A DNA stretch of 64,000 nt, from positions 36,086-100,085 of the forward strand of contig CAZBUJ010000009.1 of NCBI GenBank assembly GCA_964495075.1, given 5' to 3'. Numbering within the stretch: the first letter of the stretch is position 1; every line of letters begins with the position of its first letter. The DNA comes from an uncultured Phycisphaeraceae bacterium (lineage in GTDB: Bacteria; Planctomycetota; Phycisphaerae; UBA1845). Positions 222 through 17,832 of the stretch are shown here, one piece after another. Position numbers and translations under genes: made by a program. The notes beneath the pieces are model-generated. The model saw only the letters and a list, made by a program, of their open reading frames with translations. It had not been told where the DNA came from and ran no database searches.

Positions 222-410
222 CCCGGCGCTGGCCGCGGCGGAGGCGGGCGGCATGTCGACGAGGCCGTCAACGACAACACGCGTGGTCTCGGGGGTGGTC
301 GGGTTCCAGTTTGGGCGCGAAGTTCACTCGGCGCTTACCGTAGTGGACGCGGGCGGTGCGTCGACGAGGCCGTCGATAAAAACGCGCATGGCGTCGGGGG
401 TGGTCGGGTT
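222..410. repeat. Diverged 84-bp direct repeat (222-305 and 327-410); the second copy is the last 28 codons of the 324..2237 gene
   Basis: NPTTPDAMRVFIDGLVDAPPAS versus NPTTPETTRVVVDGLVDMPPAS; 66/84 nt identical by manual alignment, offset 105 bp. Confidence 0.85.
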
Positions 411-2237
411 GAAGCTCGTCCGGCGGATATCGTCGGCGTTCTGGCGGCGCTGGTCGCGATCGGTGGCGGTGAGGTTCCAGAGCCGGCGCGTTTCAGCGTG
501 AATCTGCTCGGGTCTGTGGCAGACCGGCGAGGGGTCGGGCAGCCCGGCCAGCGGGTTCAGGTTCAAACCGCCCTCGCGGCCCACCACGATGGCCGGCACG
601 CCCGCGGCCACGGCCTCGTAGAGCACGGCCGAGCCGGACGAGATGATCAGCCGGGCACGGGCGAGCCATGTGTCCATGCTCCCGTCGACGAACTCGAAAT
701 GGTCCGGCATGCGGTCGACGCGGCAGTGGTGCATCAGGTCGGGCAGGCTCATCATCGGATGCGGTTTGACCTTCACCGCCAGATCGGTCGCGTCGCCCAG
801 ACCGGCGAGCACCTTCGACAGCAGTTCCACCGCCGATCCCAGCTCGAGCGGCAGGGCGACCAACACGCACGCGCGCTCCTCGCCGTTTCGGGGTGCAGCG
901 CCGGCGAGGTGGGCGTAGCGGAGGGCGGGGCCCTCCACGACTCGTTGCGGGTCCAGGCCGTCGCGCAGCAGGGCGTCGCGAGAACGCTGCCCGTTGCAGA
1001 CGATGCGGTCCGGGAGCGGGGCCCGGCTCGCCTCGACGGATGTCATGAAGTGGCACAACAGCAAGGGGGCGGGCAGGGGGTGCTGGAACCCGACGATCTT
1101 GACCGCCGGCCAGTGCCGACGGAAGCCGGCGATGGTCCCCCGCTCGGGGAGCATGTTCTCGTACCCTTCGATGAGCAGGTCCACGCGGACGCCCGCCCGC
1201 TTGAGTCGTCGCGGCAGCCGGGAAACGAGAATCCATTCCAGCACGTCGCGGTCCAGAGCGAAACGCAGCCGCTCCTCTTCGAACAGCGGCGTGACGTCCA
1301 GGTCGTCGAGCCCCACGCGGCCGCGCGGCAAGAACGCCTGCCGGAGCCCGACGCCGAGCGTGAACAGCAGATCGGAGAATCGATAGTACTCGTCGGCGTT
1401 CACGAATCGCCGCCGGTTGTCGTGCAACCATCGCCAGGCGTCGCGGTACGAGCGCTTCACGTTGTACAGCACCGGCAGGGTCAGCACCTCGTAATGCTGG
1501 GCCTCCAGCCACTCGCTCACGCCGACCAGCTGGCGGTCGCGAAACGTCCCGTCCTCCCGCAGGCACGCGTCGTCGACAAACGTGCGCAAGAGCACGGTGG
1601 GGCGATCGGAAACCTGCGGGCGGTCCGCACGGTGGCGTTTCACGTCGCGGGCCAGGCGGGCAACCGACCATCGGTGGCGCAGGAACCGGCCGGCGTGTCG
1701 GGCGAGGTTGGCGTACCGACGCAGCCGTACCCGCCACAGCGGCTGCGACGGCGTGATCCATCGCACCGGCCGATGCCGGGCCCGGGCGTGCCGGGCCAGG
1801 GCGTGCAGCGCGGCCCAGCTCTCGCTGACCAGACCGAGCGAACCTGGGTGGCGTTCCAGCAGTTCGACGCCGACGTGCAGGTGACAGCAGTGCAGAAACA
1901 GGGGGCTCACCATGGTGTTTCGCTCGGCCACCCGAGACGTCCACCAGGCCAGCGAGTCGTAACGCCGCCCCATGTCCGCCAGGAGTTCGAGGTACGGGCG
2001 GCGAAGCCGGTGGGCGGTGTCATCGAGGTGCCGCGTAATCGGCACTCGCTCGTGCCGCCCCGGGACGTCTTCCAGGCCGCGTTGCCAGGCCAGCAGTCGC
2101 AGGTAGTCCTGGCCCAGGTAGGCCCAGGGGATCACTCCGGCGGCGCGCTCCGGGCCGGTCACCTGATCCGGACGGCCGGAGGCGTGGGCGAGCCAGACGG
2201 TGCCGCGCCGTGGTGGCGCATCGCGGCGCGGTGTCAC
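324..2237 (-). CDS. Surface-carbohydrate biosynthesis protein, putative GT-B-fold ulosonate transferase
   Basis: GFQH and VKVKPHP motifs, C-terminal SSGSAVLYEAVAAGVP; GTG start overlaps the kdsB stop (GTGA). Confidence 0.6.
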   Translation of the reverse strand: MTPRRDAPPRRGTVWLAHASGRPDQVTGPERAAGVIPWAYLGQDYLRLLAWQRGLEDVPGRHERVPITRHLDDTAHRLRRPYLELLADMGRRYDSLAWWTSRVAERNTMVSPLFLHCCHLHVGVELLERHPGSLGLVSESWAALHALARHARARHRPVRWITPSQPLWRVRLRRYANLARHAGRFLRHRWSVARLARDVKRHRADRPQVSDRPTVLLRTFVDDACLREDGTFRDRQLVGVSEWLEAQHYEVLTLPVLYNVKRSYRDAWRWLHDNRRRFVNADEYYRFSDLLFTLGVGLRQAFLPRGRVGLDDLDVTPLFEEERLRFALDRDVLEWILVSRLPRRLKRAGVRVDLLIEGYENMLPERGTIAGFRRHWPAVKIVGFQHPLPAPLLLCHFMTSVEASRAPLPDRIVCNGQRSRDALLRDGLDPQRVVEGPALRYAHLAGAAPRNGEERACVLVALPLELGSAVELLSKVLAGLGDATDLAVKVKPHPMMSLPDLMHHCRVDRMPDHFEFVDGSMDTWLARARLIISSGSAVLYEAVAAGVPAIVVGREGGLNLNPLAGLPDPSPVCHRPEQIHAETRRLWNLTATDRDQRRQNADDIRRTSFNPTTPDAMRVFIDGLVDAPPASTTVSAE

Positions 2238-3007
2238 GACGTGACCCCTTCGGCTGATCGGGGCGTGTAGCGTTTCCGCCAGGCGTCGTGCTCCATCAGG
2301 GCCCGGACGATGGCCAGGTCCTCTGGAGTGTCGACGCTGACGGCGGCGTGCTTCGTTCGCACCGCCCGGATCCGCTCGCCGTGCTCGAGGATGCGCAGAT
2401 ACTCGTTGTACTCGATCCGTTCCAGTGGCGTGGGGGCCCAGGCCGCGAACCGCTTGAGAAACGGAGTGCGGAACGCGACGATGAAGCACATCTTCCAGAA
2501 CACGTTCACTTCGGACCGGGCGTCGCTGGGCAGGTCGGCACGGGAGCAATAGAGCACGTTGTCGTCGAGATCCAGCACGGCCTTGATGTCGGACGGACTG
2601 TTTCGCTTGTCGAACGGGCAGACGCCGAGGGCGACGTTGAGCGCGGGGTCGCCGGCCACCGCGTCCACGATGGCGTCGATATGCTCGGGGTCGACCAGCG
2701 GTTCATCGCCCTGGATGTTGACGGTGACGTCGGCCTGGACGGAGTCGACCGCTTCGGCCAGGCGGTCGGATCCGGTCGCATGGTGCGAGCCGGTCATGAT
2801 GACGTCGACGCCATGTCGGGCGGCCACGTCGCGGATCTCCTCGCTGTCGGTGGCGAGGTAGACGGCGTCCAGTCGCCGGGCGAGGGCCGCTCGCTTGCAG
2901 GTGTGGACGACCATGGGCAGGCCGGCGATGTCCGCCAGGGCCTTCCGCGGGAGTCGGCTCGATTCGAGCCTGGCCGGTACCATTCCGATGACCGTCATTC
3001 GCGCCAC
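2234..3007 (-). CDS. kdsB: CMP-Kdo synthetase-family cytidylyltransferase
   Basis: PARLESSRLPRKAL, TGSDR, NIQGDEP, LERIEYNEYLRILE, SVDTPED. Confidence 0.9.
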   Translation of the reverse strand: MARMTVIGMVPARLESSRLPRKALADIAGLPMVVHTCKRAALARRLDAVYLATDSEEIRDVAARHGVDVIMTGSHHATGSDRLAEAVDSVQADVTVNIQGDEPLVDPEHIDAIVDAVAGDPALNVALGVCPFDKRNSPSDIKAVLDLDDNVLYCSRADLPSDARSEVNVFWKMCFIVAFRTPFLKRFAAWAPTPLERIEYNEYLRILEHGERIRAVRTKHAAVSVDTPEDLAIVRALMEHDAWRKRYTPRSAEGVTS

Positions 3008-3010
3008 TCC

Positions 3011-3796
3011 TTACCGCCCCGTCACCTGGCGGAACTCGTCCACCGCATCCCGCATGGCGCGGTGCAGCACCGCGCAGTCGGGGAGGTAGGTGATGAACTG
3101 CATGCCGATGTTGATCATCCATTGAATGTCGTCGCGATCGCGGGCGACGAAGCCGCCGGCGGTCAGCCCCGCGTCGCGGATCTTCCGCACGCACGATTCG
3201 AGTTCGTGCCGCACCCGCGGATCGTCCACGTGCCCCGGCATCGCCATGGCCTGCGACAGGTCATAGGCCCCGATGTAGACGAGGTCGAGGTGCTCGGTCC
3301 TGAGCACGGCGTCCAGGTTGTCGATGCCGCGCCGGCCTTCCAGGATGGCGCCGACGAGGGTGCGGCTGTTCTGCCGGTCGGCGTGGGCGCGCATCGACGC
3401 GCCGGAGTAGCCGCCGGCCCGGGTGTAAGGGGAGAAGCCGCGTCGGCCGACGGGATGGTACTTGGACAACGCGACCGCCTCGACGGCGTCGTGAGCCGAC
3501 TCCACCCGCGCGACCAGCACCCCGTCGGCTCCCAGGTCGAGGGCCCGCAGGATCGTCGCCTCGTCGATCCGTCCCAGTCGAACGAGGGGGCTCACGCCTT
3601 CGGACTGGGCGGCCCGGATCATCTCCTCCGCGGTTTCGAAGCCGGCGGGTCCGTGCTCCAGATCGATGATGACGAAATCGAAGCCGGCCGATGCGGTTAC
3701 GTTCATGGCCGCCCCCGTCGGCAGTGCACACCAGGGGCCGAACACCGCTTCGCCGGCCGCCAGACGGTGCTTTAACGACGTTGTGGGTGTCATCAC
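3011..3796 (-). CDS. HpcH/HpaI class II pyruvate aldolase
   Basis: DLEHG, LVR, ALDLGA, YHPVGRRG, ILE, IGAYDLS. Confidence 0.9.
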   Translation of the reverse strand: MMTPTTSLKHRLAAGEAVFGPWCALPTGAAMNVTASAGFDFVIIDLEHGPAGFETAEEMIRAAQSEGVSPLVRLGRIDEATILRALDLGADGVLVARVESAHDAVEAVALSKYHPVGRRGFSPYTRAGGYSGASMRAHADRQNSRTLVGAILEGRRGIDNLDAVLRTEHLDLVYIGAYDLSQAMAMPGHVDDPRVRHELESCVRKIRDAGLTAGGFVARDRDDIQWMINIGMQFITYLPDCAVLHRAMRDAVDEFRQVTGR

Positions 3797-3828
3797 ACGG
3801 TTACCTCCTCGGGGCGGGATGCCTCCCG

Positions 3829-5364
3829 CTACGTTGCCGTCCTGAGCCGCTGATCAGTCCAGTACTCCACCGGCAGGTGGTACCAGAAGTGCTTGACCCG
3901 CAGCTTCGCCAACCGCGTGGCCAGTCGGCCCCGCCACCCGGCCGGTCGATCGCCCTCGCGTGGAGGACGGGTGGCGACGTCGTAGTAGTACTGGATGCGC
4001 GGCAACTGCGTGCGAAATCGTCGGGGGGTCCACGGAATGCCCGAGAAGGTGGCTTCGTCGCGAATCAGGAACTCACGCCAGTCCTCGAGCCGCGTGGGGA
4101 TGGCCAGGTTGTGCCGGGCGACCAGCCGGTCGTAGATCGGTGAGCCGGGATAGAGGCGGAACACGAACGGCCCGGCAATGTCCGTCTCGGGCCGCATGGT
4201 TTTCATCCGCAGGCATAGATTGTAGGTGTCCCTGATCTGATCGAGCGTTTCGCCTTCCAGGCCGACCATGAAGCTGTAGCGCGGGAAGATGCCGGTCCCG
4301 TCGAGCGTGCGCAGTGATCGCAGCGTCTGCGCAGGTGTGATGTCCTTGGCCAGCCGGTCCAGGACGTCCTGGTTGCCGCTCTCGCCGCCCATGACGAGCG
4401 AGCCGTGTCCGATGCGATCGAGCCGGCGGACCAGGTCCCGGTTGAGGTAGTCGTCCGAGAAGTGGTCGACGCGACACCACATCCGCCAGTTGAAGCGGAG
4501 GTTTTCCTTCTCGACCCGGTCGAGGAACGTGAGCACCCGCCGCTTGTTCACGAAGAAGTCTTCGTCGAGGAACAGGAACGTGTCCGCGCCGTGCTCCCGC
4601 TGCAGACGCTTGATCTCCTCGACGATGGACTCCGCGTCGCGATAGCGGTAGCGGCGTTTGAGAATGACGTTGATGCAGAACTGGCATCGGTAAGGGCATC
4701 CCAGGCCGGTGAGGATCGGCGCGATGCGGACCTTGCGGCCGGCGGCCGGGAACTCGCGCTGGTAGACCGACACGGTTCTCTTCGGCTGCACGTACTGCTC
4801 GATGTCGATCAGCGAGAAGTCGAAGTGGGGCAGAGCCCGGATGTCCTCCGGCTCCGCGCACTCGGTGATGACGGGCTGGCCGTCTTCGTCCCGGTACCCC
4901 ACCCCGCGAACGGCGTGAAGGCTCTGCCGCCCCCGCAGGACATGGGACAGCTTGACCGCCGTGATGGCGCCTTCGTTGACGACGATGATGTCGATGTTGG
5001 GGTCGGCCAGCGTCTGCTTCGGGAACAGGGTCGGGTGTGGTCCGCCCCAGACGACGCGGACGGAGGGGCACGTCTGCCGGACCGCCTTGGCGGCGGCGAG
5101 GGCGAGCGGCACCTGTGTGGTCATGACCGACAGGCCCACCCAGAGAATGTCCGCCTCGTGGGCCGCGACGTAGTCTGCGAGCCGGTCGAGGTAGTCTTTG
5201 TGGTAGCCCCCGTCGATGACGTGCACGTCGTAGCCGTTCTGCTTGAGCAGCGTGCCGATCAGCAGAACGGCGGTGCTGGGATACACGGATCCCGCGATGG
5301 CGTGCGTGCTGTTCACCGACGGCAGCAGGTTCACCAGGACGATCGTGTTTGCCCGTTCGCTCAT
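3829..5364 (-). CDS. Cobalamin-binding radical SAM protein (class B methylase-like)
   Basis: N-terminal B12-binding region (WGGPHPT, VVNEG), CPYRCQFC, DEDF, GGESG. Confidence 0.9.
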   Translation of the reverse strand: MSERANTIVLVNLLPSVNSTHAIAGSVYPSTAVLLIGTLLKQNGYDVHVIDGGYHKDYLDRLADYVAAHEADILWVGLSVMTTQVPLALAAAKAVRQTCPSVRVVWGGPHPTLFPKQTLADPNIDIIVVNEGAITAVKLSHVLRGRQSLHAVRGVGYRDEDGQPVITECAEPEDIRALPHFDFSLIDIEQYVQPKRTVSVYQREFPAAGRKVRIAPILTGLGCPYRCQFCINVILKRRYRYRDAESIVEEIKRLQREHGADTFLFLDEDFFVNKRRVLTFLDRVEKENLRFNWRMWCRVDHFSDDYLNRDLVRRLDRIGHGSLVMGGESGNQDVLDRLAKDITPAQTLRSLRTLDGTGIFPRYSFMVGLEGETLDQIRDTYNLCLRMKTMRPETDIAGPFVFRLYPGSPIYDRLVARHNLAIPTRLEDWREFLIRDEATFSGIPWTPRRFRTQLPRIQYYYDVATRPPREGDRPAGWRGRLATRLAKLRVKHFWYHLPVEYWTDQRLRTAT

Positions 5365-6143
5365 GCCGCGGATTCCGCTCGGGCCGCTACGGCCTGGATC
5401 TCGGCGATGCTCCCCACCACGTGGGGCGTGACCTGTTCCAGCCGGGCGCGGTCGGTCACCCCGCTGGCCACGCCGATGGCGGCCCGGCAGCCGGCGTTGC
5501 GTCCGGTCTGCACGTCGCCGATCGAGTCGCCGACCATGACGGTGTTACTCATTCGCACGCCGAGCGATTGGCCGATCAGGTACAGCACGTCTGGTGCCGG
5601 TTTGGAGCTGGCCACGCGATCCCCGCCGGCGATGCAGTCAATGGCGTCTTCGATGCCTAGCTGCCGCATGGCGAGCGAGGCGCGGTAGGTGCGATCGGTG
5701 GTGGCCACCGCGATGCGGCAGGCGGCCGCCTGGAGCCGGCGGATCAGCGCGTGCAGCCCTTCGATGGGTTGCACGATCTCGGCGAGGTGATCCCGCGACT
5801 GGATGTCCGCCTCGCGGAAGGCGTCGTGCAGCAGGTCGTGCACGTCGCCCAGACCTCGGGATTGCAGGTAGTCCGCGCCGGCCCGCAGGACGATCTCGCG
5901 CCCTTTGATCCCGACCGGTCCTTCCGGCTTGATCCGCATCCGCGGGACGTCGACGCCCATGCTGTCCATCAGGCCTTCGGTGGTGGGACGATCCAGTCCG
6001 AGTTGTTTCCGCACGAGTTCCGCCCGCAGGCGGATCATGTTGGACCAGTAGGTGTGGATGTCGATCAGCGTGCCGTCCTTGTCAAAGACGACGAGTTCGA
6101 TGCCCTCCAGTTCCGCATCGTTGACCACCAGTGTCGCGCGCAC
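5361..6143 (-). CDS. HAD-family phosphatase
   Basis: FDKDGTL, ATT, KPAPD, MVGDSIGD; GTG start behind AGGAGG. Confidence 0.9.
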   Translation of the reverse strand: MRATLVVNDAELEGIELVVFDKDGTLIDIHTYWSNMIRLRAELVRKQLGLDRPTTEGLMDSMGVDVPRMRIKPEGPVGIKGREIVLRAGADYLQSRGLGDVHDLLHDAFREADIQSRDHLAEIVQPIEGLHALIRRLQAAACRIAVATTDRTYRASLAMRQLGIEDAIDCIAGGDRVASSKPAPDVLYLIGQSLGVRMSNTVMVGDSIGDVQTGRNAGCRAAIGVASGVTDRARLEQVTPHVVGSIAEIQAVAARAESAA

Positions 6144-6144
6144 G

Positions 6145-7209
6145 TCAATCCCTCCTGATTCGGTCGATGTTGGTTTCCACGAGTCGCCGGGCCTTGGCCA
6201 CGGCACGAGCCAGCCGCGCGGAGTCCTCGTCGAGGTCGGGCCGCTGGATTTCTTCCCGCACCAGGTTGCGGGCGAAGGTTCCGATCGACACGCCGTTCAC
6301 GTCCACGCCGCACAGAGCGGCCAGCTCGCCGGTCCGGCTGTTCGTGCCCCCGGACAGGAGGATGCGGACGGGAACCTTGCTCTTGCGGATGACGGCGGCA
6401 CAATCGACCGAGCTCAGCGTGGTGTTGAAGTCGTCCGCGCCGCCGCTCATCGGCGCGCCGTCCGCCTGGATGATCAGGCGCTCGCCCGCCACGTCCCTCG
6501 CCCGGCGCACCCGCTCGACGAGGTGGTGGTTCGACAGGCGTGACCGGTCGAGGCACAGGCTGACGAACTGGTGGGGGAGGATTTCGTTGATGATGCGCCA
6601 GTCTCTCAGGACCACCTCGTCGTCGGGAACGACGGCGTGCAGTTCCAGGCTCTCGGCGCCGGCGGCGAGGCACTCGGGCACCACTTTCCGCAGGTCCACT
6701 TTCCGCGTGTAGAAGTGCACCGCCTCGCTGGGGCAGGCGTCGGCGCAGCGCCCGCACCCGATGCACCGGCCGGCGATGATTCTGTACGGGTCCTTGTCGA
6801 TCGCGAATTGATCGCAGTGTTCGTAACAGGCGCCGCACGCCACGCACGCGTCGTCCGCGATGCGGGCCTTGCGCGCGTGCGGGTCTCCGCGGAGTCCGAC
6901 GCTTACCGTGATGAAGGGACGCGTCGAGACCGATCGGCCGAGTGACGGGGCGAGGGCGGCGGCTCGCTCGATGCCGCGTCCGCTCGCCCGGACGACGTCG
7001 GCGTGGGCGGACACGTCGATGCCCAGCGCCCCGGCCAGCGTATAGACGAGCGAAAGCCGGTAGACCTCGTCGGGGTCTTCGTTGCCGGCTCCGCAGACGA
7101 CCTTGAAGTACTCGCCGCGGTCCAGGATGTTCCTCATCGCCTGGAAGCGGGTCGCGCGGGTCGTCGAGGCCCGGGCCGGCGCGGCGGATGTTGCCAAGGG
7201 ACTGGCCAT
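6145..7209 (-). CDS. LdpA-like 2x[4Fe-4S] protein
   Basis: KVVCGAGNED, GDPHARKA, CVACGACYEHC, CIGCGRCADACP, ELHA, QADGAPMSG, LSGGTN, GVSIG resemble cyanobacterial LdpA. Confidence 0.75.
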   Translation of the reverse strand: MASPLATSAAPARASTTRATRFQAMRNILDRGEYFKVVCGAGNEDPDEVYRLSLVYTLAGALGIDVSAHADVVRASGRGIERAAALAPSLGRSVSTRPFITVSVGLRGDPHARKARIADDACVACGACYEHCDQFAIDKDPYRIIAGRCIGCGRCADACPSEAVHFYTRKVDLRKVVPECLAAGAESLELHAVVPDDEVVLRDWRIINEILPHQFVSLCLDRSRLSNHHLVERVRRARDVAGERLIIQADGAPMSGGADDFNTTLSSVDCAAVIRKSKVPVRILLSGGTNSRTGELAALCGVDVNGVSIGTFARNLVREEIQRPDLDEDSARLARAVAKARRLVETNIDRIRRD

Positions 7210-7220
7210 GAACTCTCGCG

Positions 7221-8957
7221 TCACACGCTGCACGGTTGCAGGAAGTTCTCCATGCCCTTGTAGAACCGGTGATGGCTCGTGGGGGTGATGATGTGGACGC
7301 CTTCCTGTCCTCGATCGCGCACGTACTGGTCGATCTGGCAGAGGAACCGGTCGTTCCACTGGTGCCGCTCGGCCACCACCTCGTAGTCTTCCGGCTCGAG
7401 TTTTTCCTCGTAGAACAGGGCGCGGGTGACGGTGGCCTTGCCGAGATATCCGTCCATGCCGGCCACGAAGAGTCGCCGCGCCCCCATGACGATTGCGACG
7501 CCGAGCAGCAGCACGGAGATCGTGCGGCAGTTCGTCTGGATGCGACCGTCGACGATGTCGAAGTCGGCGTCCAGGACGTTTCGGAAACCGAGTGTCTCGT
7601 AACTCCGCTCCACGTACTCGGCGACCATGCTCGGGGGGATGTTCTCACCGATGAGCAGTCTGGAGTTCGGGCCGACGGTGTCGTGATACATGACGAAGCG
7701 GTTTTTGTTGTTGAACGCGTGGTAGGTCGGCTCGAACAGGCCCGACAGGCGGTTCGCCCCGAGCACGATGGGGTTGTACGTGTCGATGAACTCGCGGATC
7801 TGCCGGCGGTACTGCTTGAGGCTCGGCCCGTTGGCCAGGACGAGGAAGTCGCGGCCCGGGTGGCGGTTCACATAGGCCACGGCGGGGGCCGGCTTCGCCG
7901 ACTCGGCGGCGGCGACGGGCGGCCCGGCGGCGGCCTGGCGGCCCAGGCTGCCCACCACGCCGTTGCGGATCAGCTTGTTCACCAGTGACCGGTCGAAGCC
8001 GACCGGCTTGAGTTCATCAATGACTTCCAGTGCCTTCCAGATGTCCCCAATGGAGTACTCCTTCCGCTTGACCAGGTCGGCGGCGTAGTAGGGATGGCAC
8101 TTGAACATCCCGGAGATCATGTACGGCAGCTCGTAGCCCCAGGGCTGCGTTTTGCGGATGTGGACGTAGTAGCGGTCGATACACTCGAGCACCGGCACGA
8201 CGTTGTACTTCGCGCTGCCCTGCGTACAGAGGTAGGCCAGCAGCGCTTCGGTCGGCAGGTTTCCCGCCCCGCGGCCCATGCCGAAGATGGAACTGTCGAC
8301 GATGTCGACGCCGACGCGGATCGCCTCCAACGTGTTGGCGAACGCCATCTGCAGGTTGTTGTGCGGGTGGAAGCCGACTTTGACGCCGCCCAGTTCGAGG
8401 AACGGCTCGAACAGCGGGCCGATGTCGTTGGGGACCATCGAGCCGTAGCTGTCGGCGATGTAGAAGTAGTCCAGGCCGGCGCTGACGAGCGCGCGTTTCA
8501 GATCGGCTTTCTCCGGCTCGGTGTAACTCCCGAACGCCATGGCCTGCAGCGACGTGACGTAGCCCTTCGCCTTGATCTTGTCGAGCAGATTGATGGCGTC
8601 GTGGACCTGGGTCTTGTGGGCGGCGATCCGGACCATGCTGGCCAGGCTGCTGGCTTGCGGGTCGAGGTCGGACAGCTCGATCTCGCCGTAGTTGCCCATG
8701 ATGGCGATCTTGGGGCCCGGGATGCCTTCCATCGCGGCCCGGAGGCTGTCTTCAGAAGTGACACGCCATGGCCCGTAGACCTTGGGGTCGAACTGCCGAG
8801 GGCTGCCCCGGAACCCCAGCTCCACGTAGTCGACGCCGCTCTTGGAGAGGGCGCGGTACGACTCGCGAACCACGTTTGTGTCGAACCACCAGTTGTTCAC
8901 GTATCCGCCGTCGCGAATCGTGCAGTCGAGGATTTCCAGCTTGCCGTCCTGATTCAT
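7221..8957 (-). CDS. DRE-TIM (HMGL-like) aldolase fused to a C-terminal GT42/Maf-like domain
   Basis: LDCTIRDGGY, ADSYG, GFHPHNN, GMGRGAGNL; after an Ala/Pro linker, LANGPSL and AIVMGARRLFVAGMDGY; start could also be 8969. Confidence 0.8.
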   Translation of the reverse strand: MNQDGKLEILDCTIRDGGYVNNWWFDTNVVRESYRALSKSGVDYVELGFRGSPRQFDPKVYGPWRVTSEDSLRAAMEGIPGPKIAIMGNYGEIELSDLDPQASSLASMVRIAAHKTQVHDAINLLDKIKAKGYVTSLQAMAFGSYTEPEKADLKRALVSAGLDYFYIADSYGSMVPNDIGPLFEPFLELGGVKVGFHPHNNLQMAFANTLEAIRVGVDIVDSSIFGMGRGAGNLPTEALLAYLCTQGSAKYNVVPVLECIDRYYVHIRKTQPWGYELPYMISGMFKCHPYYAADLVKRKEYSIGDIWKALEVIDELKPVGFDRSLVNKLIRNGVVGSLGRQAAAGPPVAAAESAKPAPAVAYVNRHPGRDFLVLANGPSLKQYRRQIREFIDTYNPIVLGANRLSGLFEPTYHAFNNKNRFVMYHDTVGPNSRLLIGENIPPSMVAEYVERSYETLGFRNVLDADFDIVDGRIQTNCRTISVLLLGVAIVMGARRLFVAGMDGYLGKATVTRALFYEEKLEPEDYEVVAERHQWNDRFLCQIDQYVRDRGQEGVHIITPTSHHRFYKGMENFLQPCSV

Positions 8958-9068
8958 CGCGCGTGTCATCTGTCTCAAGAGTACCGGTCCAATCGTCCCG
9001 ACCGGGCCCCGGCGCGGGTGGCGATTGACGCCCCGCGGGGCGGCCCCGCCCTATCGAGACAACCGTAG

Positions 9069-9076
9069 TTATCGGC
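9069..9076 (-). promoter_or_regulatory. Putative sigma-28 -10 element for the aldolase-kdsB operon
   Basis: GCCGATAA on the minus strand about 110 bp upstream of the start; -35 weak. Confidence 0.5.
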
Positions 9077-9334
9077 TGTTCAGGCCGCGCGAGACGTGAC
9101 GTTTTTTTGGGGCGGGAGAGGGGAGGAGCGGAGCGGCGGGAAGCACCCATCACAAATGGCAAGTGGGGCCTCGCGGCTGGGCCGGTTCTGCCCACGGGCA
9201 TGCGTGCCGTGTTCGTGCCTGGTCCGACCAGCGACGGGGCTGCTGTATCCTTCTTCTCCGGCGGGAGTTGCGGGCGTTCTCGCCCGGACGAGGGTCCGGG
9301 TGCGCACTTCGGCAGGAACAGGGCGAGGCGGGTG

Positions 9335-9342
9335 GCCGATAA
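9335..9342 (+). promoter_or_regulatory. Putative sigma-28 -10 element for the GT4 pair
   Basis: GCCGATAA about 95 bp upstream of 9436; -35 weak. Confidence 0.5.
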
Positions 9343-9435
9343 CGAATGGAGTGATGCACCTGGTAACACGGAACGGCCCCGCGTCGGCGGCTCGGCGAGC
9401 GTCGCATCCGGCGAGGCGGTCGCCCGTGAGGTGAG

Positions 9436-11097
9436 GTGATCGTGCGCATCGTGGTGGTCTCCAATCTCTATCCGCCGCACGGCGTGGGCGGGTACGAGCT
9501 TCGGTGCCGGGCGTATGTCGATGGGCTGCGGCGGCGCGGGCATGACGTGCATGTCGTGACCAGCCGGCTCGACGACGACGACCAGACGGACCCGGATCCA
9601 CCTGGAATCGACCGGGCGTTGCACCTGTCGTGGTCTCCGCCCTATCCGCCGGAGGATGTGGCCGGGCTGCTCCGCTGCGAATGGGAGGACCGCCAGGCGA
9701 TCGCGGCGGTGGTAGATCGGGTGCGGCCGGACGTGATCGACATCTGGGGCATGGAGGCGTGCTCGCAATCGACGGTGGCGGCGTTGCTGGCCGGTCCGGT
9801 CCCCGTCCATCTGACCGTGGATGACATCTGGCTGCTCGATGGGTGTGCCCGGGACACGCTGTGCGGATTGACGGCGGTCGCGTCGGCGGCGGGGGTGGCG
9901 TTCACGCCGGCGATAGGCCGTGTTTGCCGCCTGGGTTTGACGCGGCCGTCACTCGGCACGGCGCCGGTTTGCTTCGTGTCATCGGCGTTGGCGGATCGGT
10001 ATCGGGCGGGCGGATTCAGTCATCCGCATCAGTGTGTTCGCATGGCGGGCATCGACGTGTCACCCTTCCGTGCGTTGGCCCCCCCGTCATCGCCGCCGCC
10101 GTTTGTCGTCGTCAATGTCGGGCAGTTGACCCGCCGGCGGGGGCAGGCGGACCTGATCGAGGCGGCGGCGCGGGTGGCCGTCGACGCGCGTTGTCCATGG
10201 CCGCTCGAGCTTCGCATCGTGGGGCCGGGCACGGCCGCGTACCGCGCGGAACTGGATGCGGTGGGGGCCCGGTGTGCGTGCGACCGGTTGACGGTCCATT
10301 TCGCCGGCGCGGTGCCGCCGGATGAGGTGGCCCGCGCCTACGCCGGGGCGCATCTGTTCGTGCATCCGTCGCGATTGCCGGAAGGGTTGCCGCGGGTGTT
10401 GATGGAGGCGATGTCGGCCGGTGTGCCGGTCGTGGCCACGGACACCGGCGGGCAACGGGATGTTCTGGCGGACGGGCGCTGGGGGAGGCTGGTGCCGCCC
10501 GGTCGGCCCGACGTGCTGGCCGACGCGATTCGGGGCGTGATCGGCGAGTGGCCGCGCTGGCGGGTGCGGGCGGATCAGGCGCGGGCGTACGCGCTCGAGC
10601 GGTTCGATCAGCAGGCGTGCATCGATCGTCACGAGCAGGACCTGAAGGAGTTGGAGGCGGCCGGTCGGCGGGCGCCGGCCGAGTCGCTGCCCGGGTCCCG
10701 TCCGAGTGACGCGGAGCTGAATGACTTCGCGGCGCGGCTGGGAGCGGCCGCGGAAGGGCGGGCGGACGCGTGTGACGTGGCGGGTGAGCCCGATGGGGTG
10801 TGGCGGTGGGCCGTCGTGCTGAAGCGGACCGGGCGACTGGCGGCGGCCGATGACTGGCTGGCACGGTTGCTCGCCGCGCATGAGTCGGATCCGACGCAGA
10901 CGCGGCGGGTGGCGTTTCATCGTGGCGAGCTGGCGATGGTGCAGGGTGAGTGGGAGCGAGCCGCGGATCTGTTGCGGGCGTGTCTGGCCGTGGCCCCGGA
11001 TCACGCCAAAGCGGCGTACGATCTGCGTCATGCGGAGGCGGGGCGGTTGCCGGCCCATCTGGCGGGACTGTGCCGCGCGATGGCGGTGCACGGCTAA
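9436..11097 (+). CDS. GT4 glycosyltransferase with C-terminal TPR-like helices
   Basis: SNLYPPHGVGGYE, PSRLPEGLPRVLMEAM; helical repeat tail. Confidence 0.88.
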   Translation: MIVRIVVVSNLYPPHGVGGYELRCRAYVDGLRRRGHDVHVVTSRLDDDDQTDPDPPGIDRALHLSWSPPYPPEDVAGLLRCEWEDRQAIAAVVDRVRPDVIDIWGMEACSQSTVAALLAGPVPVHLTVDDIWLLDGCARDTLCGLTAVASAAGVAFTPAIGRVCRLGLTRPSLGTAPVCFVSSALADRYRAGGFSHPHQCVRMAGIDVSPFRALAPPSSPPPFVVVNVGQLTRRRGQADLIEAAARVAVDARCPWPLELRIVGPGTAAYRAELDAVGARCACDRLTVHFAGAVPPDEVARAYAGAHLFVHPSRLPEGLPRVLMEAMSAGVPVVATDTGGQRDVLADGRWGRLVPPGRPDVLADAIRGVIGEWPRWRVRADQARAYALERFDQQACIDRHEQDLKELEAAGRRAPAESLPGSRPSDAELNDFAARLGAAAEGRADACDVAGEPDGVWRWAVVLKRTGRLAAADDWLARLLAAHESDPTQTRRVAFHRGELAMVQGEWERAADLLRACLAVAPDHAKAAYDLRHAEAGRLPAHLAGLCRAMAVHG

Positions 11098-11184
11098 CGA
11101 GAACGATGAACGGAACAGGTGGCGGGGAAGCCAGCGAAGGAAGCGGCGCGGGCGTCGGCCTTCGGCCGCGGGCGGGAGCGTCTG

Positions 11185-12366
11185 ATGCGAATTGGGATCC
11201 AACTGCTGTCGCATCGGGCCGGGCAGACCGGCGGACAGGAGATGAACATCGTTCGCATGCTCGCCCGGATGGTCCGGCAACTGGGCGATGACCGGCTCGT
11301 GCTGTTCCTGCGACCGGAGGTAGCGGGTGGGCCGTCGTGGCGGGCGATTGTGGCGGATCCGTGCGTCGAACTCGTTGTGGAAACGCCGGACGACCATTAC
11401 GGCGACGGTTACGAAGCGTGGAACCTCCGCCTGCTCGACGCGGCGCGGCTGGACGTCGTGTACTTCCCGCTCTTTTTCTTCTACCCGCGACCGCTGCCGT
11501 GGCCGGTGGTGGTGCACGTGCCCGACGTGCAGCACGAGTATTTCCCGGAGTACTTCCCCGCCGACCAGTTGAGGTGGCGGCGGGAGCGGATCGCCGAGTC
11601 GGTGGCACTGGCCGACGCGGTGATCACGTTTCCGCCGGCGGTGCCGGGCGTGCTGGCCAAGCTGGCATTCGATCGCGACAAGCTGCACGCGATCGATGCG
11701 GGGGGGTTTCTGCCGGAGGACATCGAGGCGGCCCTGACCTCGCCGGACTGTGCCGCACAATGCGTGGCGGATCAGCCGTTCTTCTTCTATCCCGCGGGCG
11801 ACTGGCCGCACAAGAACCACGAGACACTGTTGCGGGCGGCGGCCCGGATGGCGGCCGACGGTCGGCCGGAGCACTTCGTGTTCACCGGGATGGTGTCGCA
11901 GCGCGGCGCGGCGTTGCGGGCGCTCGCGGAGAGCCTGGAGGTGGGCGAGCGCGTGCACTGGCTGGGTTGCGTGCCACAGGACGAGTTGATTCGGTTGTAC
12001 CGTGCAGCGCGGTTGCTGGCGTTTCCGAGCCGGTTCGAAGGGTTCGGCATGCCCCTGGTCGAGGCGATGCAGCTAGGCTGTCCGATCGTCGCGTCGCGGG
12101 CCACCGGCGTGACCATGACCGCCGGCGACGCGGCGGCGTATTGCGACGATGATCCGGCGGCGTGGGCGGCGCGGCTGGCGGCGGTGTCTGACGACGCCTC
12201 GCTGCGTGAGGATCTGCGCCGTCGCGGTTTTGTTCAGGCGGAGCGGTACGATTGGGGCGTTAACGCGCGGCGGCACCTCGAGTTGCTGCGGGCCGTCGGG
12301 GCGACACGCGACGTGCGAGTTGCCAGTTGCTGCTCGCCGAGGAGGCGTCGCGGTTGGACAGGTTGA
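11185..12366 (+). CDS. GT4 glycosyltransferase (MtfB-like)
   Basis: DVQHEYFP, WPHKNH, PSRFEGFGMPLVEAM. Confidence 0.9.
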   Translation: MRIGIQLLSHRAGQTGGQEMNIVRMLARMVRQLGDDRLVLFLRPEVAGGPSWRAIVADPCVELVVETPDDHYGDGYEAWNLRLLDAARLDVVYFPLFFFYPRPLPWPVVVHVPDVQHEYFPEYFPADQLRWRRERIAESVALADAVITFPPAVPGVLAKLAFDRDKLHAIDAGGFLPEDIEAALTSPDCAAQCVADQPFFFYPAGDWPHKNHETLLRAAARMAADGRPEHFVFTGMVSQRGAALRALAESLEVGERVHWLGCVPQDELIRLYRAARLLAFPSRFEGFGMPLVEAMQLGCPIVASRATGVTMTAGDAAAYCDDDPAAWAARLAAVSDDASLREDLRRRGFVQAERYDWGVNARRHLELLRAVGATRDVRVASCCSPRRRRGWTG

Positions 12367-12436: not shown

Positions 12437-14458
12437 TCATGCGCGGTGTGCAGTTGCGGTGTGGGAGCTGGTTTGCCTCGTCACAGTGCTGGTTGCGCCG
12501 TTTTTCAGGTCAAACAGCCATTTCATCACGCGGTCGGTGGGGTTGCCGGGGTCGGCGAAGACGTATCGGCGCACGTAGTCGCACGGGCTCGCCTGGGCGA
12601 GGTCGCCCACCAGGCCGGACGGGTTGGCAGCCAGGTCGCGACACGCGTCCAGCATCTCGGCTTCCGTCTTGCACCAGCAGAATGTGCGCTCGACGTCCGG
12701 CTTGAAGTGCTCGGCCAGCGCCGTCTGGTCCGGGTCGCAGAAGAGGATGAGCGGTTTGCCGAGGATCGCCGCCTCGTCCCATGTCGTGTTGCAGTGGATG
12801 TCGGTCAGGATCACGTCGGCGCCGGCCATGAGTTCGGCCAGCGGCGTGGTACTGTCCACGGTTACGCCGGGGATCGGGTCGCGCCCGAGCCGGAAGCGCA
12901 CACCGTCGGTGGCCGGTCCGAGCGTGGGCGGGAATGGGCGGTAGCAGACCGCGAGGTCCGCCCGGCCGGCCATGGCTCGAAGGCAGCGGAGGACGAGGTG
13001 ATAGCGGCGCGTGTCTTCCGGCGCGATGAAACCGGCAATCGTGTTCTGGTGACTCGTGCCGCCGATCCAGAGTGCCCGGCAGGGGCCCGGGTCCCGCTCG
13101 ATCCGCCCCGTCGGTGCGGATGCGTAGTTGCGCGATGAGCCCACGGGCACGAACGTCGAGCGAAGTGGCCAGCCCGCATCGTCGGGTCGCCGGATCCCAC
13201 GGCCGTAGCACAGGAAGTAGTCGCAGTCCTGGAACCCGCCCAGCTCGTGTGGCGGGTCGACGCACGTGCCATACGAGCCGCCGTGCTGGTAGAGGATCGT
13301 GGGAACGCCACGCTGCCGGCAGTGCCAGCAGAGCCGCTTGGCGAACAGGGTGACGGCGGCGATCATGCCGACCGCATCGGGCCGGAAATCGTCGAGGATA
13401 TCGTTGGCGAGATCGTCGCACAAAGCTATCGCGGCGCAACCCTGGGCTCCCCGATGAGCCAGGTGCGGTACGAGTGCGTGCCACAGTCTGGCATCGACGT
13501 CGCCGAGCGGGCGGAACAGATCGTACTGGCGACACCAACGCTCGATCGGCTCGACGAGGTCACCCCGGTCGGGCACGTCGTCGGCGGTGTGCCTCTCGTA
13601 GAGCCGCCAGCACCCCGTCGCGAGATCGCGCACCCGCGAGTGCACGACCGGCGGGACAGGGTCCGCGTGCAGCGTGCGCGACTCGAAGAGCAATGCCTGC
13701 GAGGTCGGGTCACGGACGAGACGCTGGACGACCGGCTCCCAGTCGTAACCGGCGGTGTCGATCGTCAGCAGGCGGAACCCGTCACACGGGGCGCGGGGTG
13801 CGGTCAGCGGCTTCACCGCGTGGTTGTGGGACCCGGCGGCGGGATCGACGGTTGCCGCCGACGCATGCGTCCCCAAAGCGTCGGTACGTGCTCCGGCGGT
13901 GTGGAACGCAATTCCTTCCGCCGACAGCCACTCCTTGAGGCTGGTGGTCCATGGGTTCTCGGTGTACCCCTGTCCGGCGAACCACACGTTGATCGTCTCG
14001 GGCAGGAACCGGCAGGCGGTTGGGCGGAGGGCCCGCACCGCCTCGCGCATGAGGAAGAACCGCGTGAACAGCGCGGTCATCGCGTACTGGATGATGTAGG
14101 ACTGGGCGGTCAGCAGCCCCGGGCCGTCCACCGCGAACCGCGGCCAGGCCTCGCGGAGGCGCGTATCCAGGGCTGTGCAGAGTGACCAGCACTGGTGCAT
14201 GAGGGCGTCGTGCACGTCGGTGGTGAGGCGTCGGACGTCGGCCACGCGGCCGACCGGCAGGTGGTCGATGCCGGCCCGCTCGAGGGCTTCGCAGGCCTCG
14301 GCCGTCATCGCGACCACGGTGTGCGTGGACAGAGCGTCCCCGTCGGCGGCGATGGGCTCTGCCTGGTGCTGGTCATCGACGAAGACGAGCGTTGTCCGAG
14401 TCACGTCGGTTGGATCGATCCTTGCCTGAGTCCGGTGCAGGTCGGGTGTTCGCCCCAT
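12437..14458 (-). CDS. Hypothetical GT-B-like capsule/ulosonate transferase
   Basis: 673 aa; GVPTILYQHGG, YRPFP, TTWDEAAILGKP; same general layout as 324..2237. Confidence 0.55.
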   Translation of the reverse strand: MGRTPDLHRTQARIDPTDVTRTTLVFVDDQHQAEPIAADGDALSTHTVVAMTAEACEALERAGIDHLPVGRVADVRRLTTDVHDALMHQCWSLCTALDTRLREAWPRFAVDGPGLLTAQSYIIQYAMTALFTRFFLMREAVRALRPTACRFLPETINVWFAGQGYTENPWTTSLKEWLSAEGIAFHTAGARTDALGTHASAATVDPAAGSHNHAVKPLTAPRAPCDGFRLLTIDTAGYDWEPVVQRLVRDPTSQALLFESRTLHADPVPPVVHSRVRDLATGCWRLYERHTADDVPDRGDLVEPIERWCRQYDLFRPLGDVDARLWHALVPHLAHRGAQGCAAIALCDDLANDILDDFRPDAVGMIAAVTLFAKRLCWHCRQRGVPTILYQHGGSYGTCVDPPHELGGFQDCDYFLCYGRGIRRPDDAGWPLRSTFVPVGSSRNYASAPTGRIERDPGPCRALWIGGTSHQNTIAGFIAPEDTRRYHLVLRCLRAMAGRADLAVCYRPFPPTLGPATDGVRFRLGRDPIPGVTVDSTTPLAELMAGADVILTDIHCNTTWDEAAILGKPLILFCDPDQTALAEHFKPDVERTFCWCKTEAEMLDACRDLAANPSGLVGDLAQASPCDYVRRYVFADPGNPTDRVMKWLFDLKNGATSTVTRQTSSHTATAHRA

Positions 14459-14733: not shown

Positions 14734-14814
14734 CCAAGCAGTTTGTCATTGACCACAGTCGGGGTCCGCTCCGGCGCGGCCCGCCGGCCCCGGCGGCGGA
14801 GAAGGAGACCGGTT

Positions 14815-15513
14815 TTGACCACTGGCAGGCGTGTTGCCATCGTCATTCAGGCGCGGATGAAGTCCACCCGTCTGCCCGGCAAGGTGCTCAGGCCGATTGC
14901 CGGTCGGCCGATGCTCGACTACGTGCTGGACCGGGTGTTGCGATGCGAGCGGTGCAGCCGCGTCATCATCGCGACGTCGGATAATTACCAGGACGATGCC
15001 CTCGAAATCCTCTGCGCGATGCGGCGGTTGCCCTGTTATCGCGGTGATCACCGCGACGTGGCTCGCCGGTTCCTGGACGTGCTCGAGAAGTTCGAGCTGG
15101 ACGGCTTCGCGCGGGTGTGTGCCGACAGTCCGCTGATCGACCCGGCCTTGATCGACGAGGGGCTCGCCCGATTCCACGACGGAGCTCACGACGTTGTCAC
15201 CAATAACCTGCGGCGCACGTTTCCGGCGGGGCAGACGATCGAGATCGTCGACGCGGAAGCGTTCCGGCGGGCGTACCGGCGGATGGAGTCGGCCGCCCAT
15301 CGCGAGCACGTGACGCGCTATTTCTATGACCATCCGCAGGATTTCGACATTCTGAACCTGACCGCGGATGAGGACCACTCGGGTCTCAACCTGTCCGTCG
15401 ACACGCAGGAGGACTTCGATCGGGTGGTCGCGATCATTCGCGGGATGAAGCTGCCTCACTGGCGTTACCGTTGGAGCGACATCGTTGCCAACCTGTGCGC
15501 GACTTCACAATGA
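14815..15513 (+). CDS. SpsF-type acylneuraminate cytidylyltransferase
   Basis: IQARMKSTRLPGKVL, ADSPLIDP, REHVT, LSVDTQED; TTG start behind AAGGAG. Confidence 0.9.
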   Translation: MTTGRRVAIVIQARMKSTRLPGKVLRPIAGRPMLDYVLDRVLRCERCSRVIIATSDNYQDDALEILCAMRRLPCYRGDHRDVARRFLDVLEKFELDGFARVCADSPLIDPALIDEGLARFHDGAHDVVTNNLRRTFPAGQTIEIVDAEAFRRAYRRMESAAHREHVTRYFYDHPQDFDILNLTADEDHSGLNLSVDTQEDFDRVVAIIRGMKLPHWRYRWSDIVANLCATSQ

Positions 15514-16537
15514 GACCGACGCGCGGGCGACCGCGCGACCGTTGCGGGCGGCCGTCATCGGACTTGGCGTCGGCGAGGCTCACGTGGCCGGGCTCCAGCG
15601 CCACCCGCGATGCGAGGTCGTCGCCGTGTGCGACTTCTCGGAGGCCAAACGTGACAAGGCACGGCACGCGTACCCGAGCGTGGCGGTGCGGGAATCGTCC
15701 GAGTCGGTGCTGACCGACCCGGACATCGACGTCGTCTCGATCGCCTCGTACGACAACTACCACTACGAGCAGGTTGTCCAAGCACTCGAGCACGGCAAGC
15801 ACGTGTTCGTGGAGAAACCGTTGTGTTTCCGGGCCGAGGAGGCCCGCCACATCCGGACGCTGTTGAACGAACGCCCGTGTCTGACGCTGTCATCGAACCT
15901 GATCCTGCGGATGTGCCCGCGGTTCGCGGCGTTGCGGGAGGCGATCCGCCGCGGCGAGTACGGCGACCTGTTCCTGGTGGAGGGCGACTACCACTACGGT
16001 CGCCTGCACAAGATCACCGAGGGGTGGCGGGGCGCCATCGAGTGCTATTCGGTGGTGCACGGCGGCGCGATCCATATCGTCGACCTGCTGTTATGGCTGA
16101 CCGACAGCCGGATCGTTGAGGTGTCGGCGGTCGGCAACCGCGTGGCATCCCGGGGTTCTCAGTTCCGGTTCAATGACGCGGTGGTGGCGGCGCTCCGGTT
16201 CGACAACGGCGTGATCGGCAAGGTCGGCGTGTCGTACGGTTGCGTGCGCCCGCACTTCCATGGTCTGTCGATCCACGGGACGCGGGCGACGTTCGTCAAC
16301 GGGTGGCCGGACGGGTGGCGGTTCGAATCCCGTGACCCGCGGGTGGCACCCACGCGGATCGTGGACGCGTACCCCGGTGTGCACAAGGGGGATCTGCTCG
16401 CCAGTTTCATCGACGCGATTCTCGACGCACGCGACGCCGTCGTGAACACCGAGGACGTGTTCCGCACGATGTCGGTCTGTCTGGCTATCGAGGAGGCCGT
16501 GCATACGGGTACCGTGCAGCCCGTGGAGTACATCTGA
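15485..16537 (+). CDS. Gfo/Idh/MocA oxidoreductase
   Basis: IGLGVG, HVFVEKP, GAIHIVD; start uncertain. Confidence 0.9.
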   Translation: MPTCARLHNETDARATARPLRAAVIGLGVGEAHVAGLQRHPRCEVVAVCDFSEAKRDKARHAYPSVAVRESSESVLTDPDIDVVSIASYDNYHYEQVVQALEHGKHVFVEKPLCFRAEEARHIRTLLNERPCLTLSSNLILRMCPRFAALREAIRRGEYGDLFLVEGDYHYGRLHKITEGWRGAIECYSVVHGGAIHIVDLLLWLTDSRIVEVSAVGNRVASRGSQFRFNDAVVAALRFDNGVIGKVGVSYGCVRPHFHGLSIHGTRATFVNGWPDGWRFESRDPRVAPTRIVDAYPGVHKGDLLASFIDAILDARDAVVNTEDVFRTMSVCLAIEEAVHTGTVQPVEYI

Positions 16538-17830: not shown

Positions 17831-17832
17831 GT

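Follow-up and report, generated by a model that had tools for sequence, protein, structure and literature searches.

To our knowledge, every described route to 3-deoxy-manno-octulosonic acid (Kdo) or to a nonulosonic acid starts with a phosphoenolpyruvate (PEP)-dependent synthase, and gene-based surveys for ulosonic acids look for KdsA or NeuB. In the Kdo pathway (KdsD-KdsA-KdsC-KdsB, with WaaA or KpsC/KpsS) a synthase is followed by a phosphatase, by activation with cytidine monophosphate (CMP) and by transfer, and in the nonulosonic pathways (NeuB/PseI/LegI, NeuA/PseF/LegF and Maf or GT42) a CMP-activated alpha-keto acid is made for surface or flagellin glycans. The DmpG/BphI aldolases, which are tightly coupled to their redox partners DmpF/BphJ, handle a 4-hydroxy-2-oxo acid skeleton that equals C1-C4 of every 3-deoxy-2-ulosonic acid. 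Features of all three systems meet in an operon of seven intact, co-oriented genes (positions 324-8957, minus strand) in a contig of an uncultured Phycisphaeraceae bacterium (the accession number in GenBank: CAZBUJ010000009.1), of which a 64-kb stretch, called the window below, was analysed as a whole. Like the Kdo pathway, the operon has candidate genes for synthase, phosphatase, CMP activation and transfer, with a cytidylyltransferase that is a true member of the KdsB family and a HAD-superfamily phosphatase in the position of KdsC. Like the nonulosonic pathways, it has a domain that may belong to the PF01973 family, which includes the Maf transferases, and like DmpG/BphI it has an aldolase of the DRE-TIM fold family whose metal site consists of Asp and His-x-His and whose presumed redox partner is an LdpA-like iron-sulfur protein, fused to the aldolase in some organisms. 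This operon represents a cassette that is widespread and has moved horizontally between lineages, and we lean towards the reading that it encodes a pyruvate-aldolase route, independent of PEP, to a CMP-activated 3-deoxy-2-ulosonic (Kdo-like) acid, which would be installed on a surface glycan with built-in transferases.

The seven genes follow each other almost without gaps in the order G1 (the two-domain aldolase/Maf-like protein), LdpA-like, HAD, B12-radical S-adenosylmethionine (SAM), HpcH, KdsB-type and G7 (Table 1), the spacers in the direction of transcription being 11 nt, 1 nt, a 4-nt overlap, 32 nt, 3 nt and 33 nt. The window has a G+C content of about 67% and abundant spurious open frames; coding frames were chosen by codon-position GC together with homology, and gene starts, including that of the HAD gene, were refined against the N-termini of relatives. 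All seven frames show coding-type codon-position GC, and six of them pass the filter on third-position GC (GC3); the one that fails it, the LdpA-like frame, was confirmed via homology. The tight packing of seven co-oriented genes noticed in the first-pass annotation is borne out by coding signal, homology and short spacers. As to the domain labels given there, Pfam and NCBIfam confirm each named domain, but the Maf-like part of G1 and the 'GT-B-like' character of G7 are weaker than was claimed. The intergenic region upstream of G1 presumably serves regulation; a promoter scan of it found no sigma-70 consensus site, terminator-like sites are at chance level (4 found, 3.7 expected), and Rfam gave no match over the entire window, this region included. 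At the other end, a minus-strand frame (2-280) begins 43 nt past G7 and leaves the window at its edge, with 93 amino acids (aa) visible and no family match, and the operon may continue there.

Table 1. Positions of the operon genes and of neighbouring features in the window, with the matches that identify them.
Feature	Position	Strand	Length	Matches and remarks
G1	7221-8957	-	578 aa	HMGL-like E 5e-27; C-terminal PF01973 (MptE/Maf-like) E 0.032, below the cut-off
LdpA-like	6145-7209	-	354 aa	LdpA_C E 5e-11; two [4Fe-4S] ferredoxin motifs
HAD-IA phosphatase-type hydrolase	5361-6143	-	260 aa	HAD hit (Hydrolase) E 3e-25; HAD_2 E 4e-23
B12-radical SAM	3829-5364	-	511 aa	B12-binding E 1e-18; Radical_SAM E 1e-19
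HpcH class II pyruvate aldolase	3011-3796	-	261 aa	HpcH_HpaI E 2e-27
KdsB-type CMP-ulosonate cytidylyltransferase	2234-3007	-	257 aa	CTP_transf_3 E 2e-44
G7, putative glycosyltransferase (TIGR04326/DUF6716 kind)	324-2200	-	~625 aa	DUF6716 27.5 bits; TIGR04326 67 bits
Divergent intergenic region between the operon and two plus-strand GT4 genes	8958-9435	.		presumed promoter region
Nonulosonic-acid-type cluster	14734-29156	+		6-20 kb from the operon
CTP_transf_3 gene of the NeuB cluster	14734-15513	+		separate from the KdsB-type gene of the operon
NeuB-family synthase	19660-20817	+		296 bits, below the cut-off of 399

In one scan of 185,579 species genomes 455 relatives of G1 were found; 80 of these loci, each with at most 10 kb of flanking sequence on either side, were retained and used for the family hidden Markov models. 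A close full-length G1 is present in 63 of the 80. The five-gene core of G1, LdpA-like, HAD, HpcH and cassette-type KdsB occurs on one strand, in the same order and within 6.7-8.9 kb in 25 of the 80 loci, and in 24 of these 25 complete cassettes a G7-like gene comes after KdsB. Partial sets are found in 18 more loci, whose contigs mostly break off within the cassette. An arrangement that keeps both gene content and gene order in so many loci is far beyond chance. The complete cassettes belong to bacteria (Desulfobacterota, Planctomycetota including Scalindua, Omnitrophota, Elusimicrobia, Saganbacteria, Margulisiibacteriota and Bdellovibrionales) and to archaea (Methanobacteriota and Hydrothermarchaeota), that is, to at least eight phylum-level lineages in all, and partial copies occur in genomes of Parcubacteria, Chloroflexi/Dehalococcoidales, Marinimicrobia and Neomarinimicrobiota; the co-occurrence across phyla that the first-pass annotation asked about is thus found for the five-gene core. 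The identities of 45-70% across these lineages indicate that the cassette has been spread horizontally. Moreover, a CTP_transf_3 gene lies within 5 kb of G1 in 48 of the 63 close-G1 loci, 12 of the 15 exceptions having less than 4 kb of downstream sequence, and a HAD-like or PfkB gene lies within 5 kb in 57 of the 63. Unlike the Kdo pathway, the cassette has no KdsA, for which tblastn with the E. coli protein gave no match in the 80 loci and the window, and the same kind of search found KdsD in one and a KdsC-like gene in two of the 80 loci. In place of a PEP-dependent synthase, pyruvate aldolases would form the carbon-carbon bond, the phosphatase is of the HAD-IA and not of the KdsC type, and there are extra genes for an Fe-S protein, a second aldolase and a B12-radical SAM enzyme. 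From the nonulosonic pathways the cassette differs in that it has no NeuB-type synthase, in that its cytidylyltransferase is KdsB-type and in that its Maf-like domain is fused to an aldolase. In the literature searched, no description of this gene set or of an aldolase-Maf-like fusion was found, which agrees with the earlier statement that no described pathway with this gene set was known to its author.

Two further modules recur upstream of G1 in the relatives. In L003, L016, L017, L023 and L025 there are genes for a TIGR04331 'LIC12162 family transferase' (524 bits), a B12-radical SAM protein and a Wzx-type flippase. In L008, L010, L031, L034, L043 and L066 there is a module with a short PseF-like CTP_transf_3 gene, a D-2-hydroxyacid (phosphoglycerate-type) dehydrogenase, sometimes a short-chain dehydrogenase/reductase (SDR), a metallo-beta-lactamase (MBL)-fold hydrolase and a protein of about 655 aa that has no family match; it looks like another, unassigned CMP-activation cassette.

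The N-terminal domain of G1 is a DRE-TIM (HMGL-like, DmpG-related) metallo-aldolase domain (PF00682, 95.3 bits with a cut-off of 29), in which D11, R15, E46, H197 and H199 are invariant in 66 G1-family sequences, so that the Asp and His-x-His metal ligands are kept. Its closest solved relative with the family profile is the 'putative aldolase' 3DXI (E 7e-62), and DmpG-type aldolases come next. 3DXI is a structural-genomics entry with no assigned function; it shares the motif 'RDGGY' with G1, its 320-residue chain matches residues 6-316 of G1 only, and a literature search on the string '3DXI' gave unrelated uses only and no paper on this entry. In the alignment to 1NVM, the 'RDGSH' of DmpG corresponds to this 'RDGGY', the position of the His being an invariant Tyr. 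Furthermore, G1 scores 109.8 bits on the DmpG equivalog TIGR03217, below the cut-off of 286, Pfam reports no DmpG communication domain in it, and there is no DmpF-type gene among the domain calls of the operon; together with the Maf-like C-terminus and the biosynthetic context, these features set it apart from DmpG/BphI. As for the C-terminal domain, PF01973 is matched in 56 of the 66 family members at E<=0.1 (best 8e-9), several relatives of G1 hold this family in precomputed database annotation, and the motifs 'ANGPSL' and 'MDGY' are, as we take it, similar to those of the GT42 enzyme Cst-II. A phmmer search of the C-terminal 252 aa gave no match among the PDB sequences, and with hhalign the best probability against the multi-member families among the 100 largest open reading frame (ORF) families of the fetched loci was 2.8%. 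A search for shorter stand-alone relatives of this domain returned 19 matches, which are mostly fragments on short contigs. The G1 family is large, with 4734 matches at E<=1e-3 among the 7999 candidates scored, and the 119 other matches listed are 52-72% identical to G1. These relatives occur in uncultured bacteria and archaea, and where the source gives a name it is 'aldolase catalytic domain-containing protein', '4-hydroxy 2-oxovalerate aldolase' or 'hypothetical protein'.

Gene fusions tie the parts of the cassette together. In P0127 (781 aa) and P0170 (774 aa) an HMGL-like domain is combined with a C-terminal KdsB-type domain, and residues 2-479 of P0127 align to residues 5-504 of G1 (E 3e-57), so the Maf-like part is covered as well. 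In ten proteins of 882-889 aa (P0290-P0299) an HMGL-like domain occurs together with an LdpA-like C-terminal part, which has 42-44% identity to the product of the window gene, and the aldolase and Maf-like parts of P0290 align to G1 (E 2e-49); the Maf-like part was confirmed in this way for P0127 and P0290 only. In P0195 a HAD-IA domain is fused to a KdsB-type domain. The fusions hint at channelling, as the CMP-sugar could be handed over directly within them; CMP-Kdo is unstable. In addition, a minimal form of the cassette exists in a cultured organism, the marine alphaproteobacterium Leisingera caerulea, whose plasmid (the accession number in GenBank: NZ_CP081095.1; locus L085, 11986-14988) carries three adjacent genes within a polysaccharide cluster of the capsule/exopolysaccharide (EPS) type: one that is G1-like, one annotated as 3-deoxy-manno-octulosonate cytidylyltransferase and one for a HAD hydrolase.

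The composition of the cassette also varies around G1. Some G1 loci without LdpA-like, HAD and HpcH genes carry a PfkB kinase gene, the best matches of which are kinases of 2-keto-3-deoxygluconate (KDG) and 2-keto-3-deoxygalactonate (KDGal) (313 and 164 bits), and in other variants a class I KDG-aldolase/NanA-like gene stands beside HAD, G1 and CTP_transf_3 in place of HpcH. Since non-homologous pyruvate aldolases and a kinase of keto-deoxy acids share the same context, this points to 2-keto-3-deoxy sugar acids as the intermediates. In L060 and L061 a G1-LdpA-HAD variant lacks KdsB-type and HpcH genes; the genes further along include one of the sugar C-methyltransferase type and one for an acetolactate-synthase-like thiamine enzyme, and in L061 also an SDR. 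On the G1 tree the cassette types are clustered, with 21 changes, whereas 500 shuffles gave 31.9 on average and never fewer than 27, yet they are interleaved.

The cytidylyltransferase is the best defined part of the operon by its scores, since it is above the curated cut-offs of TIGR00466 kdsB (173 bits, cut-off 155.2) and NF003952 (235.2 bits, cut-off 193) and only slightly under that of NF009905 (244.2 bits, cut-off 255). Its identity to E. coli KdsB is 38%, and among solved structures its best relatives are without exception CMP-Kdo synthetases. The cassette KdsB clade retains 31 family-wide invariant positions, including P8, R10, K19, D100, E101, R157, E210 and D235 in E. coli numbering, so the substrate would be Kdo-like. 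A comparison of the positions separating this clade from other KdsB proteins gave three weak ones and no evidence for an altered sugar specificity; a published paper, in the part seen, names the Kdo-binding domain and gives no residue list (PMC3149649). These scores and residues, together with the annotation of the Leisingera homologue, also fit another reading, in which the product of the operon is ordinary CMP-Kdo or a very close C8 analogue, made without PEP on a side route to a glycan other than lipopolysaccharide (LPS), comparable to the capsule-specific KpsU, with the extra genes supplying arabinose-type precursors. It is also in favour of this reading that Maf enzymes can accept CMP-Kdo and transfer Kdo (bioRxiv 10.1101/2020.06.03.131540). 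By score and residues the cassette enzyme is a KdsB, but not by phylogenetic grouping or gene linkage: in a tree of 177 sequences it falls into a 48-member clade (support 0.975, stem 0.34) with E. coli KdsB, the one verified reference, outside, and it therefore stands apart from this housekeeping enzyme, with which the first-pass annotation had said that a plain Kdo enzyme should cluster. The search with it in 1.84 billion cluster representatives gave three matches at 259-341 bits, the next at 219, and about 150 bits by the 150th match listed. Besides the long stem of this clade, the distribution of the cassette speaks against ordinary CMP-Kdo, for it is present in archaea and in a Parcubacteria genome, and we know of no reason to expect Kdo-containing LPS in archaea or Parcubacteria. 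The synthesis of Kdo would call for neither an Fe-S redox protein nor a second aldolase nor the optional B12-radical SAM enzyme, and no arabinose-5-phosphate isomerase is encoded in the operon, in line with the single KdsD among the 80 loci. Taken together, we regard a route to ordinary CMP-Kdo as unlikely.

The remaining enzymes of the operon also look active, as judged from the conservation of catalytic residues in HpcH, HAD, KdsB, the radical SAM protein and G1. HpcH (PF03328, 96.4 bits, cut-off 25) has 3QZ6, GarL and YfaU as its best solved relatives, and D45, E47, H48, R73, E153 and D179 are conserved in 31 sequences; H48, R73, E153 and D179 are presumably the catalytic and metal-binding residues, as in HpaI. 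The HAD protein has the DxD nucleophile motif (D42, D44) as well as K202, D227 and D231 conserved in 39 sequences. In the radical SAM enzyme the CxxxCxxC motif (C223, C227, C230) is conserved and both the B12-binding and the Radical_SAM domains are above their cut-offs, and the protein is below every named equivalog cut-off; its gene is an optional member, with close orthologues in 8 of the 25 complete cassettes. The LdpA-like protein belongs to a family with LdpA_C in all 34 members and DUF561 in 28 of them (window protein: LdpA_C 43 bits, cut-off 22.2), and it is below the cut-off of the clock-protein LdpA equivalog NF045992 (143.6 bits, cut-off 450). Eight invariant Cys form two CxxCxxCxxxC motifs in a ferredoxin insert, to which the match of the family profile with solved-structure sequences is limited, and the motifs SGGTN and GxSIGTxAR may, by inference only, belong to a phosphate- or flavin-binding TIM barrel. 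A literature search on LdpA/DUF561 returned unrelated papers only. A role of the LdpA-like protein as mere electron donor for the radical SAM enzyme was considered and rejected, because the LdpA-like gene is constant and the radical SAM gene is found in 8 of 25 cassettes only. Phosphonate gene sets can combine a cytidylyltransferase, a B12-radical SAM protein and an HMGL-like enzyme. A phosphonate pathway was rejected for this operon, its TIM-barrel gene being of the HpcH family and the seven genes having no PEP mutase match in Pfam or NCBIfam.

Both aldolases have catabolic enzymes as their nearest characterised relatives (DmpG/BphI for G1; HpaI, GarL and YfaU for HpcH), so it might be supposed that they act in catabolism or salvage by cleaving keto-deoxy sugar acids and that the gene order represents a degradative or recycling unit. 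A Priestia plasmid, in which a single-domain G1-like gene adjoins ring-cleavage genes, would fit with this. However, both aldolases are below every catabolic equivalog cut-off (for HpcH 138.4 bits against 368.8 for HpaI, 121.6 against 393 for GarL and 110.8 against 441 for RhmA), the partner dehydrogenase and the communication domain of the DmpG system were not found by Pfam as described above, and the aldolase shares its chain with a Maf-like domain, to which in some organisms a KdsB-type domain is added. The neighbours, moreover, are glycan-assembly genes; around G1 in the relatives there are glycosyltransferases, flippases, ABC exporters and sugar-nucleotide enzymes. The possibility that the aldolases act only catabolically, which the first-pass annotation had named as fatal to its proposal, is met here by biosynthetic surroundings, and we consider it very improbable.

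From the gene content, the synteny, the conserved catalytic residues, the fusions and the absence of KdsA we infer the following scheme for the pyruvate-aldolase route. A metal-dependent aldolase, for which the DRE-TIM domain of G1 and HpcH are the candidates, would build the 4-hydroxy-2-oxo acid skeleton out of pyruvate and an aldose, free or as its phosphate. G1 is favoured as the core synthase because it is the sole aldolase in the minimal G1-KdsB-HAD triads, and HpcH, or the class I aldolase in the variants, would make or reshape a precursor. The LdpA-like protein would carry out a redox step coupled to the aldolase, and by analogy to DmpG-DmpF it may deliver or take up the aldehyde. Then the HAD protein would strip a phosphate in a KdsC-like manner, the optional B12-radical SAM enzyme would add a decoration, most likely a C-methyl group, the KdsB-type enzyme would form the CMP-sugar, and the Maf-like domain of G1, G7 or both would pass the sugar to an acceptor. 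As regards G7, it is homologous to the large proteins after KdsB in 24 of the 25 cassettes (hhalign probability 100% to the families u654 and u601); DUF6716, just above its cut-off of 27 in the window protein, is found in 9 of 15 family members, TIGR04326, a family of surface carbohydrate biosynthesis proteins, gives 67.2 bits against a cut-off of 250, and Capsule_synth is weakly matched in 2 of the 15. The G7 profile found nothing significant among the PDB sequences, KpsC appearing at E 2.2.

Several observations weigh against this scheme. Two aldolases are one more than its simple form needs, and the order of the steps is a guess. A kinase in one type of cassette and a phosphatase in the other do not obviously follow the same logic. 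The nearest relative of the window G1 (L001, 66-67% identity) is in a cassette of the PfkB type without LdpA-like, HAD and HpcH genes, and therefore G1 would do something generic and not set the identity of the sugar. In L002, L060 and L061 there is enough downstream sequence and a G1, but no CTP_transf_3 gene within 5 kb. On the side of the transferases, the C-terminal domain of the window G1 is itself sub-threshold on PF01973 (14.4 bits, cut-off 34.6, E 0.032), and the assignment of G7 as a glycosyltransferase is marginal. And for the sugar, nearly all invariant residues of the KdsB family are kept in the cassette clade, including its sugar-binding half, so that it may be plain Kdo or something very close, and in the KdsB tree E. 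coli KdsB is the sole verified housekeeping reference, the 113 other sequences outside the two cassette clades being unnamed. On the whole, no check named in the first-pass annotation refuted its idea of an operon for an activated keto acid sugar, but the 'non-canonical' nature of this sugar is proposed rather than observed, with KdsB residues that are compatible with Kdo.

Together with its surroundings the operon forms a glycan island of about 35 kb, of which it is one arm. Divergent from it are two plus-strand GT4 glycosyltransferase genes (9436-12366), which are followed by the nonulosonic-acid-type cluster (Table 1), with further glycosyltransferases beyond it. Besides its synthase and its own CTP_transf_3 gene, this cluster contains genes for a PseC-like aminotransferase, which at 283 bits does not reach its cut-off of 423, and for a WbuX amidotransferase, which at 268 bits passes its cut-off of 203. 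It also encodes a GFO/IDH/MocA oxidoreductase, two formyltransferase-like proteins, two methyltransferases, an AsnB-type amidotransferase, a carbamoyltransferase and a polysaccharide deacetylase; the NeuB-family synthase and the aminotransferase are below every equivalog cut-off. The earlier statement that there is no kdsA, kdsD or neuB is correct for the operon, and for kdsA and kdsD it extends to the whole window, where tblastn with the E. coli proteins gave no match for either, but it does not extend to neuB, because of this NeuB-family gene. The neighbourhood raises a further possibility, that the operon makes no ulosonic acid of its own and tailors the NeuB-derived nonulosonic acid of the cluster at 14.7-29 kb by changing its side chain, extending its backbone or methylating it. 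NeuB is present in 16 of the 63 close-G1 loci, and B12-radical SAM paralogues often adjoin NeuB in relatives. CMP-activated C10 ulosonic acids, not described before, were detected in Magnetospirillum gryphiswaldense by mass spectrometry, with no genes named in the part of the report that we saw (bioRxiv 10.64898/2026.04.20.719630). On the other side, NeuB is found in only 4 of the 25 complete cassette loci, the other 21 being without it in the fetched 10 kb on each side, and there is no annotated NeuB in the cluster of the Leisingera triad. The cassette cytidylyltransferase is of the KdsB and not of the NeuA/PseF type, and the NeuB cluster of the window has one of its own. For the operon as a whole, such a tailoring role seems to us improbable. 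The B12-radical SAM paralogues that lie near NeuB in L003, L006, L036, L054 and other loci are 21-33% identical to that of the window, and they may bear on the C10 ulosonic acids of Magnetospirillum.

Some other frames of the window were recorded in passing. In the glycan island, a minus-strand frame at 12437-14458 (673-701 aa) has no Pfam or NCBIfam match, and another at 30790-33441 (883 aa) has a C-terminal Glyco_trans_1_2 stretch as its only match; both are unrelated to every ORF family of the 80 fetched loci. After the island, the minus strand carries genes for a PAS-domain histidine kinase and for FapA (flagellar assembly protein A) at 35856-39686. There is no flagellin gene among the annotated frames of the window, and a link of the operon to flagellin glycosylation is only a thought. 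A plus-strand frame at 41519-42244 is of the group II intron reverse-transcriptase/maturase type and covers only positions 113-204 of the RVT_1 profile, together with GIIM; there is no group II intron match from Rfam in the window, and the frame is probably a truncated remnant.

Returning to the pyruvate-aldolase route, it is possible, although we would stop short of calling it probable, that the cassette represents a third way to ulosonic acids beside KdsA and NeuB, in which a DRE-TIM aldolase-Maf-like fusion, its Fe-S partner and a KdsB-type enzyme build a new, sometimes C-methylated, pyruvate-derived acid and place it on cell surfaces. If this is true, such a route would be invisible to surveys based on KdsA or NeuB, and the cassette could explain some of the unassigned CMP-linked alpha-keto acids of environmental microbes. 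It would offer a concrete gene set for CMP-activated ulosonic acids of the kind reported, as far as the available part of that report goes, without genes, and its enzymes could serve in the synthesis of unusual keto-deoxy sugars.

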